A stretch of 64,000 nucleotides of DNA, from positions 333,126,001 to 333,190,000 of the forward strand of contig OZ024741.1 of the NCBI GenBank assembly GCA_964016885.1, written 5' to 3'. This stretch comes from Eledone cirrhosa. Taxonomy: Eukaryota. How positions within the stretch are numbered: the stretch's first letter is position 1; each line of letters opens with the position of its first letter. Of this stretch, positions 9,176 through 47,806 are shown piece after piece. The position numbers and the translations under genes were made by a program. Under the pieces are notes generated by a model. That model was not told the origin of the DNA and searched no databases. It was given only the letters and a program-made list of their open reading frames with translations.

Positions 9176-9370
9176 TAGGAGAAAGTATGACCCCCGACGG
9201 CAGAGCTCAAGCTGTTTCGACAGTTATTTCTGGACAGAAATAGCCGTCGAAACGGCTTGAGCTCTGCCGTCGGGGTCATACTTTCTCCTATTACCCACTC
9301 TACTATCCTAAGTATTGAGTACTCTGGTGCTTTATGGTCCATCTGGTTCCTTACCACAACTACTTCGTTA
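9176..9370 (+). mobile_element. Hairpin-plus-tail element (F9), copy 1
   Basis: 115-bp palindrome 9176-9290 followed by an 80-bp unique tail ending ttcgtta in (TA)n. Confidence 0.85.
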
Positions 9371-9569
9371 TATATATATATATATATATATAGGTAGATA
9401 TATATATATATATATATATATATATATATATATAGGTAGATATATATATATATTTATATATATATATAGGTATATATATATATATATATATATATATATA
9501 TATAGAGAGAGAGAGAGAGAGAGAGATAGATAGGTATATGCATGCTGTTAAGTGTACATCAGAGGAACA

Positions 9570-10650
9570 CTGCATACATACACACACATTACACACACAT
9601 ATATGCGCACATAAAAACAACTGGGCTGCTGGCACACACATAAGAAACCTGGCTAGGTGTACAACAGGGAACACTATACACACACACACACACACATATA
9701 ACTACACAGAGAAACATCAACAGAGCTGTGGGTACACACATACAACACACACACATACACAGAAGCACATACACACACTCAAATACACCACACCGACACA
9801 CTTTATCTACACATACGAATAATTTGAGAATGTGTATCACAGGGAACACCGCACACGCTCACACACACACACACAGATACACAAACAGAGCTGCAGGCAT
9901 TCACAAACACACATACACACATACATATTGATACCAAACACATGTACACTCATAGAAACAGGAAGAGAGCTGCAGGCACACACACACACACACACACACA
10001 CACACACACACACACGCACGCGCACACACACACACACACACACACACACACACACACACACGCACACACACACACACACGCACACACACACACGCGCACA
10101 CACACACACACACACACACACACACACACACACACACACACCGACAGTAAACACTGACAACATACACACATACACCAGACACTGACAACATACACACATA
10201 CACCAGACACTGACAACATACGTATACAGCACATGCTGGATTTGTATATACACATAGAGCACACATTGACCGCACACACATACATACACACACACATGCA
10301 ATATACTTCACTGACTATATACACACACACATACAGCATACTCTAACAACATATATATATACCACACACTGACTATGTTCATACACACATACAGCACACA
10401 TTGACAACGCACACACATACAGCACACATTGACAACGCACACACATACAGCACACATTGACAACGCACACACATACAGCACACATTGACAACGCACACAC
10501 ATACAGCACACATTGACAACACACACTAACAATCTACACATATAGCACACGCAGACAACATTACATACCTCATTGACTACGTACATACTTATACAGCTCC
10601 TACTGACAACATACATTAACAGCATACACTGATAACACATACATATAGCT
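9570..10650. repeat. (CA)-rich tract including a 28-bp unit (acacacatacagcacacattgacaacgc) about 5 times
   Basis: Direct reading at 10384-10525. Confidence 0.9.
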
Positions 10651-11150
10651 TCCACTGACTCTGTACATATACGATAAAGCTAACTGGAGAAGTGCTGCGC
10701 TACGACTGTGTATGTCACAAACTGACAGCAGTCAGGAGTAGAACTTCGAATCAGGATGTACTATCTTCTCCTACAGTTGAAATATATTTACAATTTACAC
10801 GGATGATAAATATTATGCCACAGGTAAGACATATTAAATCGGTTTTAGTTTTATTTGTTATTGTTGTTGTATTTTTACATTTGAACATAATTTTTATTTT
10901 TTTCAATTTTCCCAAAAGAAAACAATTATCATACCTGTACTTGACAGAAACCTGATATTGAGAGCAATTGTGGTCTGACGAAGTTCATCCTCTTAGTACC
11001 TGTATAATGCAAGGGTTTTAATTTTATTTAATTAGTTAATTGTATTTTGTGCAGTCTGGTGTGACTTTTTGGTTTATTGTATTTAGTAGGGGATTGTTGT
11101 ATTTAGGTAGGGGATTGTGTAGGGAACACTTATATACTATTTAAAACTCA

Positions 11151-12098
11151 TCAACCCTCTAGCATTTAAACTGGCCATATCTAGCTAGAGTTCTCTCACC
11201 TCCTTCTCTTCAAACCGGCCATAACTGGCTGCTCATACTTATGTTAAGGTATTGTTCTCAAAATAAATAATATCAATCTCATAGATTCGATATTATGTGA
11301 GATAATTGTGTGAGATAAAGTGTTTACTGTGAAAATACAATAATATATATAGAGTAATGTAAATGCTAAACGGTTAAACACCAATCCACCCCATCCCTCA
11401 AAGCTACCTTTATTAAAGTGTTAAATTAAAATATAAACTTTGGACTGAAATCTCATTTTGACATATTTATACCAATTAATATCAAATTTCAGTTGTACAT
11501 ATTTGTCTTTTTGTTATTAAGTTAAAAGTTCTCTAAACCTGATATTTAAAATAGAAAGGCAATATACTCTTGTTTGAAGTAAGGTGATGAAAGGGTTAAC
11601 ACAATGAATACCAAACTTCTGTAAGCCACCTCTAGTTCTATGATACAAGGTTGTTTATTTTAAAGTGTTTATATATATATAAATTTAAACTTTCATCATA
11701 ATTTTTATGTGAAGAACATTTGTTATGTTCTAAATGATGAAAAACTTAGTAGTTTTACTAAATCTCTTCTAATTCTTCGTTATTTTCAAAATTAACTGAA
11801 ATTGATAGGCAGTGAATTTCATTAGAAATATGTCAATGAAAGGGTTAACCCTTTCAATAGCAAATGGCATGAAATCTGTAGTTTTACGATACAAAACTAT
11901 TTGTTTTGAAGTGTTTATATTTATTTAAAAGCCTTCCATCATAATTTTATCAAAAAACCTTTAAGTTATTTTCCAAACACTATCTAAATCAGAAAAAAAG
12001 TTAGTTATATTTCTAAATCTCTCCAAATTCTTGATTATTTTTCAATATTTTTGGAAAATACAAGCAGTATCTTTCATAAATTGCTGGTGAAAGGGGCA
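11151..12098. mobile_element. Chain of about four old TTAA-flanked (piggyBac-like) MITEs
   Basis: Termini aaccct.../...aagggttaa with TTAA at 11374, 11596, 11845; related AT-rich copies at ~21497, 22870, 23480-23722, 49775-50044. Confidence 0.6.
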
Positions 12099-12469
12099 AT
12101 AATAATCTTCTGATGAAAATATGTTTTAGGGACTAGGGGTACATTGGAGTCCCAGGAAACTAAGGTTGGGCAGAAGGTGGGGAGATGCTAGAAGCTACTG
12201 TCATCACCACCACCCCAAACTAAAAAGTGAGAAAATGCGGTACCCCCTGCATGACATACCCCACCCAACCTAATTGCTATCGATAATTGAAGATGGTTTT
12301 TTTTGGGGGGGGGGGGGGGGTTTCTATGAAAAAAAAAAAAAAGATTTAGGAAAAATCTATTGAAAAATTTTAGTGAAGTATTTCCTAAGAAATCCCCCAC
12401 CACCACAAAAAAAAAGACACGAACACAATAACAAACAAACATACAAACAAATAAAAAGACTTACAGAAA

Positions 12470-13090
12470 ACATTTCTTCTTTTTTTTACTTTGTTTTTCT
12501 TTCTCTTTTCTCTTTTTCTCACTTTCTTTCTTTCTCTCTTTCATTTTCTTTTTCTCACTTTTCTCTCTTCTCCAAGTTTTCTTCTCCATCCTCACCTTTC
12601 TCTTTCCTACTCTTTCTTTTGCAATTTTTTTCTTTTTCATTCTCTTTTTTTCTCATGTTTTTCACTTTTTCTGTTTTATTCTCTTTCTTACCCTTATTCT
12701 CTTTATCTTCTTTCTTTTCTCTTTATCTTTCTTTTTCTCTCTTCCACTTGTTTCACTCAGTTTTCTTTTTGACATATTTTCTCTTTTCTGTTTGTCTCTC
12801 TCTATTTATTCTCTTCCTCCTTCTCTCTCTCTCTCTCATTCTGTTTTCTTTTTCTCTTTTGTTTATATTCTTTCTCTGCATCATTTTTTTTTGGTTTCTC
12901 TTCTATTTTCTCTATTTTACTTCTCTCTTTCATACTCTCTCTCTATCACCCTCTCTCTCTCTTTCACTCTCTCTACACCCTCAGTCATTTCCTCTCCTTT
13001 TCATATTTTACTTCTCACAATTTCTCAATCTTTATTTCTCTGTCTTCTTATTTACAATCCATTCAGTCTTATCACCAATAATTTATTTTC
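12470..13090. repeat. Polypyrimidine low-complexity tract
   Basis: CT-rich; explains the Phe/Ser/Leu ORFs. Confidence 0.9.
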
Positions 13091-46720: not shown

Positions 46721-47089
46721 ATATATATATATATATATATATATATATATATATATATATATATATATATATATACATATATATATATATATATATATAT
46801 ATATATACATATATATATATATATATATATATATACATATATATATATATATACATATATATATATATATATATATATATATATATATATATATATATAT
46901 ATATATATATATACATATATACATATCAAAATATATAAGAACCGTAGAGCAAATATCAGTTTCAGAAGATCCCGTTAAGGGTGAAAGCAGCGATTCTTTG
47001 CTTAAACTTTAATCTGTTATTTTAATAAATATATATATAAAAACAGAGTTTTGTAGCTTGCCTGAAGCATTGTTGAATAGGCAACGCAA

Positions 47090-47261
47090 ATTTAAATAAT
47101 TTTGAAAACCAGAACAATGCGTTAGTAAGACCATTAAATTGTCAAGATAACAAAAGTATCTTACCGTAGCAATTAAATTTGCTAAGGTAAGATTCTTTTG
47201 TTATCTTGGCAATTTAATGTTCTTACTAATGCATTGTTTTGGTTTTCAAAATTATTTAAAT
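47090..47261. repeat. Imperfect 172-bp palindrome
   Basis: atttaaataattttgaaaacca...tagcaa-ttaaat-ttgcta...tggttttcaaaattatttaaat. Confidence 0.9.
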
Positions 47262-47350
47262 ATATATATATATATCAATATACATATATAAATATATATA
47301 TATATCAATATACATATATAAATATATATATATATATCAATATATATATT

Positions 47351-47472
47351 GTGAAGGCATGTGGCTGAGTGGTTAGAGAATTGGATTCACAATCTTGAGA
47401 TTGTGAGTTCGATTCCTGGACCCGGCGATGCGTTATGTCCTTGAGCAAGACACTTTATTTCACGTTGCTCCT
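47351..47472 (+). mobile_element. tRNA-derived SINE head
   Basis: tggctgagtggttagag...gagttcgattcc...ccttgagcaagacactttatttcac. Confidence 0.8.
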
Positions 47473-47613
47473 TCTACCTGGAGGTGCGACCGATAGATAT
47501 TATTAGCAACTGGAAAGACCGACGAAAACATTGTTTCGTCGGTCCGATTTGATGAAAGTCGATCGATCCGAAAAAAAAATATATATATATCATATATATC
47601 ATATATATATATA

Positions 47614-47806
47614 TAGGAATGAGTAGGACCCCGACGGCTGAGCTCAAGCCGTTTCGACGGCTAATTCTGGACTAATTAGCTGTCGAAACGGCTTGAGCTC
47701 AGCCGTCGGGGTCCTACTCGTTCCTATTACCCACTCTACTATCCTAAGTATTGAGTACTTTGGTGCGTTATGGTCCACCTGGTTCCTTACCACATTTCCT
47801 TCGTTA
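47614..47806 (+). mobile_element. Hairpin-plus-tail element (F9), copy 3
   Basis: Palindrome 47614-47726 + same tail. Confidence 0.85.

Follow-up and report, generated by a model that had tools for sequence, protein, structure and literature searches.

The three hairpins of the window, that is, of the whole 64,000-nt stretch analysed here, are best read as the shortest form of a head-to-head insertion of a Hydra-clade Penelope-like element (PLE), which would arise by priming at both ends of a (TA)n target, run-off at the capped 5′ end of the RNA and end-joining. We give this reading as a whole a probability of about 0.7. That the hairpins are of PLE origin is practically certain. Within the mechanism, two separately primed cDNAs appear well supported, and a run-off at a capped start would be the favoured explanation of their ends, with somewhat less confidence. 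At the level of the sequence, what is read is a parent element, outer ends fixed on (TA)n, one end at each of two sites (A and B), a variable apex, arms that share their source, a stop zone common to both arm types and an extra G. As an object, the hairpin is an ordinary PLE footprint, and the element is probably a separate family within the known PLE architecture.

The hairpins lie where the earlier note had placed them (from 9176, 30068 and 47614), with outer arms that differ between copies and match within each copy, and the same TA terminates every left arm. The apex quoted in that note is exact in copy 2 but not in copies 1 and 3, which have other junctions. Likewise, the arms do differ from copy to copy, but by subfamily alleles and not by changes private to a copy; only the apex is copy-specific. 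An asymmetry was absent from the note: the right arm extends into a 79-nt tail before reaching its own (TA)n. By sequence comparison, copy 1 has a tailless arm running from about −58 to site A and abutting (TA)n (9176..9234, minus strand), a tailed arm to site A that holds the 3′ half of the hammerhead fold (9235..9290, plus strand), and a tail leading from site A to site B and then to (TA)n (9291..9369, plus strand). In copy 2, the tailless arm covers −55 to site A (30068..30123, minus strand), and is followed by the tailed arm to site A (30124..30181, plus strand) and by the tail from A to B (30182..30260, plus strand). This tailed arm is identical to the end of an intact element; together with the tail, it agrees with element L150 at 137/137 bases. 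Copy 3 consists of a tailless arm from about −61 to site A (47614..47673, minus strand), a tailed arm to site A (47674..47726, plus strand), which is exceeded by the former by about 9 nt, and the tail before (TA)n (47727..47805, plus strand). The arms are complementary at 57/58 positions in copy 2 and at 52/57 in copy 3; copy 1, whose left arm has one extra C, is self-complementary at 91% over 116 nt. Copies 1 and 3 each have a left arm that extends deeper into the parent than its right counterpart (−58 vs −55 and −61 vs −52, respectively). Copy 1 belongs to an older subfamily, its nearest other copies being 96-98% identical. These three hairpins are the only matches to the element in the 64,000 nt searched.

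The earlier note had looked to reverse transcription or repair as the agent and to non-palindromic parents as the source; reverse transcription and the existence of such parents are borne out by intact elements that encode a reverse transcriptase (RT). The parent is a 3,531-bp tandem unit with a single 717-aa ORF, counted from the first in-frame ATG, and its copies are found in the tandem and inverted arrangement that forms pLTRs, with an optional tail. In full-length copies, the 79-nt tail region runs on into the ORF leader. The ORF carries a YRDD RT motif and C-terminal GIY-YIG motifs (VIY..YIG, R, E and N), the latter kept in 96 relatives. DKT replaces DKG (SDKTG), and the position of the RWK motif is occupied by RWR in the parent and by RWK in most relatives. 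The linker CxCx5C is present (CNCPDRSIC); CCHH and a Cys pair within the GIY-YIG core are absent from the ORF. Cys/His flanks are found around E and N, as CNLC before EE and CKH after N. The structure model of the ORF (pLDDT 93) has as its best Foldseek match the telomerase RT 3du5 (TERT; E 2.2e-8), with a TM-score of only 0.34. Pfam returned 0 families and the PDB sequence search one meaningless match; a GIY-YIG match was found neither there nor among the top 50 fold matches, and the endonuclease is named here by its motifs only. By these motifs and its (TA)n preference, the parent, a young element, is assigned to the Hydra clade of PLEs. Neptune and Naiad were dropped on account of domain order, linker and lack of CCHH.

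Upstream of site A, the minimum free energy structure of the parent segment is a predicted three-way hammerhead fold, of not unusual stability (z −0.3). A type I three-stem layout and a NUH cut site are present. Among 72 long copies, the core is U3-A8 in 59 and C3-A8 in 11, the latter forming one subfamily, and is thus not canonical; U4 is found in 72, G5 in 71, A6 in 71, A9 in 70, G12 in 68, A13-A15 in 72, U16 in 72 and C17 in 69, and N7 takes all four bases. Stem cells are paired at 91.6%, and covariation in 32 close copies is not above that in shuffles. Rfam returned no match over the parent ribozyme. The parent holds a type I hammerhead fold by prediction, a putative ribozyme, whose U3-A8 core is a difference from the canonical Hydra hammerhead and not a loss defining the clade, the variant being known in other PLEs. 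The stop point of the arms lies within loop II, so that the 5′ half of the hammerhead is missing from the hairpins and its 3′ half alone remains. In copy 2, the predicted half (30130..30167, plus strand) would comprise, in this order, the 3′ strand of stem II, GAAA (30140-30143), stem III with its palindromic loop and the 3′ strand of stem I, with a predicted cleavage site after C30162. Two to three tailed arms end at the predicted cut site (−17 to −19), too few to count. The resemblance to a hammerhead suggested in the earlier note is hence that of half a ribozyme, but the parent has a U3-A8 core and no CTGANGA beside stem II. When parents with CTGANGA ahead of the GAAA stem were sought genome-wide, 48 matches were obtained; in the 30 that were read in context, the upstream sequence is unrelated DNA or a junction insert, and these are hence not parents. 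A non-LTR retrozyme was likewise rejected, as it needs tandem units each with a complete hammerhead and the hairpins carry half a ribozyme, inverted.

The outer ends are fixed. Of 221 head-to-head pairs, 189 combine an arm ending at site A with an arm ending at site B, which lies 79 nt beyond A; 2 pairs are A/A, 1 is B/B and 29 are unclassed. All 12 long inverted insertions (12/12) likewise have one A and one B end. A TA run follows immediately after 266/274 A ends and 288/296 B ends, and TAT is common to the target, site A and site B. Genome-wide, 20,982 ends pass exactly from site B onto TA, vs 301 sequences continuing into the ORF. Contigs from four public runs present the same depth step, and they have loose ends in TA at both sites. 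The tailless end appears to be a second, separate site of priming, contrary to the proposal that the target was merely rejoined there. About 25 of 103 arms are without an inverted partner; two-ended priming is therefore not obligatory, or its products are not always kept. A TA target-site duplication would be unreadable within (TA)n.

Both arms of a hairpin come from the same source. The co-variation of arms described in the earlier note is far above chance: in a sample of 137 hairpins, the arms differ by no more than 1 edit over 22 nt in 97, whereas 200 shuffles gave 22 such hairpins on average and 32 at most. Recurrent alleles are on both arms in 39/40 cases and private ones in 36/65, the remaining 29 private alleles being on one arm only. 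Differences amount to 2.2/kb inside long insertions vs 7-24 between insertions. Two of the 137 pairs (L058 and L107) look like subfamily mixes and count against a single source. It may be imagined that the arms are matched by selection on a functional hairpin RNA or by gene conversion between them. A long perfect hairpin, if transcribed, could be a substrate of Dicer or ADAR, and Rfam matches of microRNA type occur over the hairpins, with scores far below gathering (over the window, only sub-threshold matches of microRNA and snoRNA type were returned). This explanation, of which the earlier note held selection as its alternative, is nevertheless the least probable of those considered, since the arms decay independently with CpG-type changes, differ by at least 2 edits in 40/137 pairs, confine the 29 private alleles to one arm, and match as well when kilobases apart as when adjacent. 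Arm-to-arm divergence seems to follow insertion age.

A non-autonomous unit copied whole, either a MITE with fixed terminal inverted repeats and a TA duplication or a retrotransposing hairpin RNA, with arms differing by subfamily, might also be considered. Thirty-six of the 40 scored full-length matches are identical to copy 2 over 193 nt (one being copy 2 itself), and one other junction recurs 59 times. Against this, the apex is distinct in 55/65 hairpins, the inverted repeat is made non-terminal by the 79-nt tail outside it, the arms agree at 100% with the end of an element that encodes an RT, the 59-copy junction occurs between arms of different subfamilies and has its G now on one arm, now on the other (L273, L304, L319), and same-strand A-to-G clusters were found in none of 189 pairs. 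With right-arm-only queries, 27/27 and 14/14 junctions were distinct, in keeping with the earlier idea that hairpins form afresh at each insertion. A whole-copied unit is very improbable as a general account and is refuted for the bulk of the hairpins; a minority may have been re-mobilised. A MITE would have terminal inverted repeats and an internal sequence that are both fixed; the hairpins do not, and the candidate was rejected on this ground.

A more serious competitor is the fold-back copying proposed in the earlier note; expressed in terms of the two sites, a cDNA started at site B would fold back, copy itself as far as site A and jump to the other target end via TAT. Such self-priming would account for arm identity, a fresh apex and the same overall layout, and a version on antisense RNA is proposed for head-to-head PLE junctions by Arkhipova et al. 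(2013; PMC3846280). Arm lengths in the 65 short hairpins lean in the direction that it predicts, the tailed arm being longer in 33, the tailless arm in 20 and neither in 12. However, the tailless arm should then be contained in the tailed one, and it is longer by at least 3 nt in 10/65, T runs discounted. In 24/189 pairs, the tailed arm ends 20 nt or more before the point to which the tailless arm extends, with zero overlap in 10, and many-kb tailless arms stand opposite short tailed arms, as at L149/L150, where the tailed arm measures 0.28 kb and the tailless one several units. Further difficulties are loop-free perfect palindromes (5/65), the presence of the extra G on tailless arms even where the partner does not extend to the G position (L273, L285) and direct arrays terminating at site A (L156). 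Partial loss of an arm from a palindrome after insertion could yield some of the non-overlapping pairs. All in all, fold-back copying is unlikely, and as a general route it is already contradicted. Tailed arms ending near site A are in excess (6 of the 24 short ones end within 5 nt of it), which may at most hint that the two cDNAs collide on one RNA.

With two separately primed cDNAs, the question becomes what stops them. Both arm types share a stop zone 57-62 nt above site A: 26/49 tailed and 27/55 tailless arms stop at −57 to −60, 24 of the 104 end between −61 and −70, in many cases as T runs, and another 27 run further. At this zone lies an Inr-like TYAGT, with a TATA-like box 29 nt above it. 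A single inserted base before −59 (genome-wide, n=67) is G in 59 cases, A in 6 and C in 2. In L1 insertions, such an additional G is the mark of a capped 5′ end (PMC11702581). Some of the extra Gs are microhomology, and the G could alternatively be a non-templated base on either cDNA. The two cDNAs might instead stall near −59 at an RNA structure (stem II and the loop II hairpin) or at a bound protein. In the predicted fold, the stop zone coincides with the base of the hairpin inside loop II, stops are scattered over about 10 nt, and the TATA-like bases overlap stem II, which therefore provides a second cause for their conservation. Such a stall is a minority possibility, less remote than fold-back copying. 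The 59:6:2 bias toward G at one position speaks against it, as do the Inr-like bases, invariant within an otherwise variable loop (T−61 and A−59 in 72/72 long copies, −60 being only T or C). In addition, templates that pass the zone mostly run far (19/27 beyond −124), and arm lengths sort into short-short and long-long classes in 68/75 rows under crude thresholds.

The run-off of two cDNAs may thus be envisaged as follows. The putative GIY-YIG domain would cut (TA)n twice, and both 3′ ends of the cut target would prime reverse transcription on the same RNA, one at A and one at B, pairing through the shared TAT. The stop zone would correspond to the transcription start, as suggested by the TATA-like box and TYAGT. 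Both cDNAs would run off the capped 5′ end, copying the G from the cap, and their joining by host end-joining would create the apex. With the putative start inside loop II, the ribozyme would be represented at the 5′ end of the RNA by its 3′ half alone. Read-through or circular RNA, with the whole element upstream of the same two sites, would give rise to long and tandem insertions. For a purified PLE protein, cleavage and extension of both strands have been described, with synthesis beginning at two internal positions of the RNA that bound the tail (PMC11167929). More tentatively, and with somewhat less than even confidence, PLEs may insert by programmed two-ended priming, in which one RNP would cut both strands and make one cDNA per fixed site. 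The cDNAs of capped mRNA would then be strong-stop products fused into hairpins, outnumbering full-length 5′ ends about 70:1. The mRNA would begin inside its own hammerhead, so that the ribozyme would be whole only in read-through RNA, which, cut and circularised, would template seamless tandem arrays. If so, pLTRs, the one-sided tail and the inverted copy would be explained by one scheme.

The origin of inverted copies and one-sided tails in PLEs is stated as open in PMC8557442, PMC11167929 and PMC3846280. A two-ended insertion mechanism was not found in print; preprint supplements and subscription papers may contain parts of it. If true, two-ended priming would answer this question of PLE insertion mode, and the tens of thousands of young insertions, together with intact source elements, make up a dataset that discriminates between insertion models. 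In addition, such stumps seed the genome with long inverted repeats and risk mis-annotation as MITEs or microRNA hairpins. With MITEs having a TA duplication, they share short length, lack of coding capacity, an inverted repeat, TA flanks and high copy number; they differ from them by a non-terminal inverted repeat, a variable apex, an RT-coding parent and no transposase link, and are not ordinary MITE subfamilies.

Among known elements, the Hydra-clade PLEs, including Hydra-1_Obim of Octopus bimaculoides (Craig et al., 2021, PMC8557442), bear a clear likeness to the parent, by eye. In common are the single ORF with RT and C-terminal GIY-YIG motifs, DKT, the CxCx5C linker, the lack of CCHH, the CxxC/CxH flanks, (TA)n targets, an inverted 5′-truncated copy and the optional tail. 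Unlike those elements, the unit is 3.53 kb (vs usually <3 kb), with RWR for RWK, a tail of 79 nt vs 30-40 and a U3-A8 core vs the reported canonical cores; the family is also young and abundant, and is probably separate from Hydra-1_Obim. The minimal hammerheads of PLEs (Cervera and De la Pena, 2014, PMC4209133) share the type I topology, U3-A8 replacing C3-G8, G10.1-C11.1 and a palindromic loop 3, and opposite-strand pairs 100-700 bp apart were noted there. Here, stem III is of a full 5-6 bp, the large loop II would contain the transcription start, and one subfamily has C3-A8. As described in PMC11702581, L1 twin priming also has both target ends priming on RNA, an extra G at capped 5′ ends, and an inversion junction with microhomology or small inserts. 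There, however, the second site is internal and variable and the cDNAs barely overlap, whereas here the sites are fixed 79 nt apart and overlapping cDNAs would give a hairpin. For Penelope of Adineta vaga, PMC3846280 describes head-to-head pLTRs with a tail on one, TATA and Inr-like motifs and junction palindromes, explained by self-priming on antisense RNA; the insertion counts obtained here, from sequence comparison, favour two-ended priming by two cDNAs on sense RNA over this published scheme. Finally, Poseidon PAc of Anolis carolinensis (Frangieh et al., 2024, PMC11167929) has in common two internal RT starts bounding the tail, an AT-rich target and extension of both target strands, observed in vitro there and proposed here. 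No primer homology is reported in that paper and its two sites are not linked to head-to-head insertions, whereas here TAT is common to the target and both sites, and each insertion pairs A with B.

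The three hairpins claimed by the earlier note are present, at 9176 (copy 1), 30068 (copy 2) and 47614 (copy 3), each surrounded by (TA)n. The arms of copies 2 and 3 are complementary at 57/58 and 52/57 positions, respectively; in copy 1, which has one extra base, self-complementarity is 91%. The right arm extends 79 nt past the stopping point of the left arm. Site A (position 0) denotes this point, and site B (+79) the far end of the tail. A search of the 64-kb window with the parent element returned these three hairpins only. Around copy 2, (TA)n-type repeat spans about 1.2 kb, and on either side of it lies an RT fragment of the same LINE family, the two fragments overlapping (27378-32643). 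The window also holds one 200-base N gap.

The apex pattern, extended upstream, gave 6,240 exact matches in the 3.0-Gb genome, several of which led to a long 3′ UTR and an RT ORF. In a protein search, 107 of 61,073 candidates were scored, and about two dozen share one 784-codon open frame. The element unit, 3,531-3,543 bp long, is found in tandem and inverted arrays in the 20 regions examined. Its ORF, 717 aa from the first in-frame ATG, carries YRDD, DKT and RWR motifs, a CxCx5C linker, GIY-YIG motifs without CCHH, and terminal CxxC and CxH. These are Hydra-clade features of Penelope-like elements (PLEs) according to the accessible part of Craig et al. 2021 (PMC8557442), in the supplement of which an octopus family resembles the present protein. 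The folded model (pLDDT 93) has telomerase RT as its nearest structure; 629 relatives were found, mostly at about 40% identity, and comparisons with Pfam and with PDB sequences gave nothing informative. The right arm and tail of copy 2 are identical to the element end at 137/137 positions. Genome-wide, 20,982 site-B ends are joined exactly to TA, and the same 21 bases run into the ORF 301 times. Because contigs from four public runs show loose TA ends at both sites, a step in depth around the segment and one strand-switch contig, these ends are not an assembly artefact. Inside arrays, pLTR-tail junctions are seamless (9 exact matches over five loci, the variant allele of loci L141 and L142 being left unmatched), which would be compatible with long copies being made on read-through or circular templates. 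The element end also forms short, retrozyme-like tandem repeats, whose periods are about 257 and 299 bp, at G000:C1:27009483-27010175 (locus L093) and G000:C2:356030082-356031006.

In the predicted fold, the element end forms a type I hammerhead. Core positions are near-invariant in 72 distinct long copies, and each of the four bases occurs at N7; position 8 is A throughout, and position 3 is mostly U (59 copies), with C in 11. The U3-A8 core is a PLE hammerhead variant already known, as given in the accessible part of PMC4209133. An Rfam search gave no match over the predicted ribozyme, and stem covariation is uninformative there. The parent end may be regarded as a hammerhead ribozyme candidate with predicted cleavage.

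Head-to-head pairs combine one end of each kind. Among 221 such pairs, 30 loci of which had been picked by a whole-hairpin query, 189 are A + B, 2 are A/A, 1 is B/B and 29 are unclassed; long inverted insertions are A + B in 12/12 cases. TA follows 266/274 A ends and 288/296 B ends, and TAT is present at both sites. The earlier note had proposed fold-back synthesis, in which the tailed cDNA would fold back and copy itself, so that the tailless arm must lie within the tailed one. It does not always do so: the tailless arm is the longer one in 20/65 hairpins and the shorter one in 33, the remaining 12 having arms of equal length, and, with T runs discounted, it is longer by at least 3 nt in 10/65 and shorter in 17/65. 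In 24/189 A + B pairs the tailed arm stops at least 20 nt short of the tailless one, and in 10 of these the arms share nothing. At loci L149/L150, a 0.28-kb tailed arm stands opposite several whole units. Later deletion in unstable palindromes could account for some of the short non-overlap cases, but not for the long ones. Loop-free palindromes make up 5/65 hairpins. Fold-back is unlikely as the general route.

Independent formation of each hairpin, also proposed earlier, is borne out by the junctions, distinct in 27/27 and 14/14 cases with the right arm alone as query and in 55/65 hairpins of a wider sample. The latter comprises 23 junctions with overlap, 9 blunt and 33 with inserted bases. 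Identical junctions recur (36/40 scored in one search, 59 in another), as a small share of more than 20,000 ends. As the earlier note had suggested checking, the arms match by locus: 97 of 137 hairpins (167 minus 30 query-selected copies) agree within 1 edit over 22 nt, whereas 200 arm shuffles gave 22 such hairpins on average and never more than 32. Two of these 137 pairs look like subfamily mixes. In long insertions, the arms differ at 27/12,477 sites, versus 7-24 per kb between insertions, and 39/40 recurrent and 36/65 private alleles are on both arms. Arm lengths also agree, with 57 short-short, 11 long-long, 7 mixed and 25 partnerless rows and 3 at a locus edge, under crude thresholds and with some insertions counted twice. 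Judging from the sequences, both arms of a hairpin come from one source. The apex of the hairpin at locus L199 carries a tail fragment of another subfamily, which suggests a template jump between RNAs. Four unlinked arms (loci L031, L040, L051 and L059) are joined, upstream of the element end, to one same repeat foreign to the unit, possibly as head-to-head junctions with another family.

Of 104 arms reaching -57 (upstream of site A), 53 stop at -57 to -60 and another 24, many of them as T runs, at -61 to -70; the other 27 continue past the stop zone, and 19 extend beyond -124. The pattern is the same for tailed and tailless arms. A conserved TYAGT, which we take to be an Inr-like motif, has its A at -59, and a TATA-like stretch overlapping stem II begins 29 nt upstream. 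The single non-parental base before -59 at junctions is G in 59/67 cases, A in 6 and C in 2. In L1 insertions, capped 5′ ends are marked by an extra G, according to the accessible part of PMC11702581. These features suggest that arms stop where the cDNA runs off an RNA whose capped start lies inside loop II. The main rival is that stalling, rather than run-off, explains the stop near -59. Run-off at the capped start would explain why the CUGANGA-side half is missing from the hairpins. The earlier note had this half replaced by the inverted copy: its absence stands, whereas the expected parent with CTGANGA beside stem II does not, the parent having none there. The 48 genome-wide CTGANGA matches were ruled out as parents, the 30 inspected being junction inserts or unrelated DNA. 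At loci L065, L074, L085, L270, L280 and L318, the stop zone is immediately preceded on its 5′ side by 10-20 consecutive T (or A), the pattern that oligo-dA addition by the RT to a completed cDNA would give.

An unrelated hairpin family, AT-rich and likewise found in (TA)n, has the same layout (4575-5008, with a solo arm at 8715-8975). Each arm carries a complete canonical minimal hammerhead, and one side an 82-nt tail; in all 10 hairpins sampled, a short end faces a long one, and the apices vary, two of them having a G. Another hairpin, beside (TA)n at 42537-42869, carries a CTGAGGA...GAAA core in each arm and is extended on one side by additional sequence. A clear hammerhead core was looked for and not found in the AT-rich hairpins at 2221-2538, 47090-47261 and 18055-18234, which adjoin TA runs, and at 21248-21476. 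Loci L039, L046, L050, L096 and L198 represent a diverged sister family that differs in stem III; it forms hairpins of the same kind, which stop at an Inr-like motif resembling the one above. An uninterrupted 1,040-codon frame on the + strand (39076-42198), with endonuclease and RT motifs, is RTE-like by eye; fragments like this LINE lie at 44492-47008 and in a 984-nt inverted pair (57034-58017 / 60124-61107).

Taken as a mechanism, the PLE protein would likely bind the 5′ part of its RNA and cut (TA)n on both strands. TAT would then probably serve for priming at A and B, after which the two cDNAs would likely run off the RNA 5′ end and probably be fused by end-joining. Such two-ended priming is a mechanistic lead open to test. 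The head-to-head architecture itself is already known for PLEs. The one-A-one-B rule, two-ended priming and capped run-off were not found stated for PLEs in the literature searched, subscription papers being mostly outside reach. In their accessible parts, the O. vulgaris repeat paper (PMC13282606) gives Penelope counts only and a retrozyme preprint (10.64898/2026.07.22.740005) deals with tandem units. Self-priming on antisense RNA is proposed in the accessible part of Arkhipova et al. 2013 (PMC3846280). In the accessible part of Frangieh et al. 2024 (PMC11167929), both strands are extended in vitro and two start sites bound the tail, but these sites are not tied to inverted copies there.
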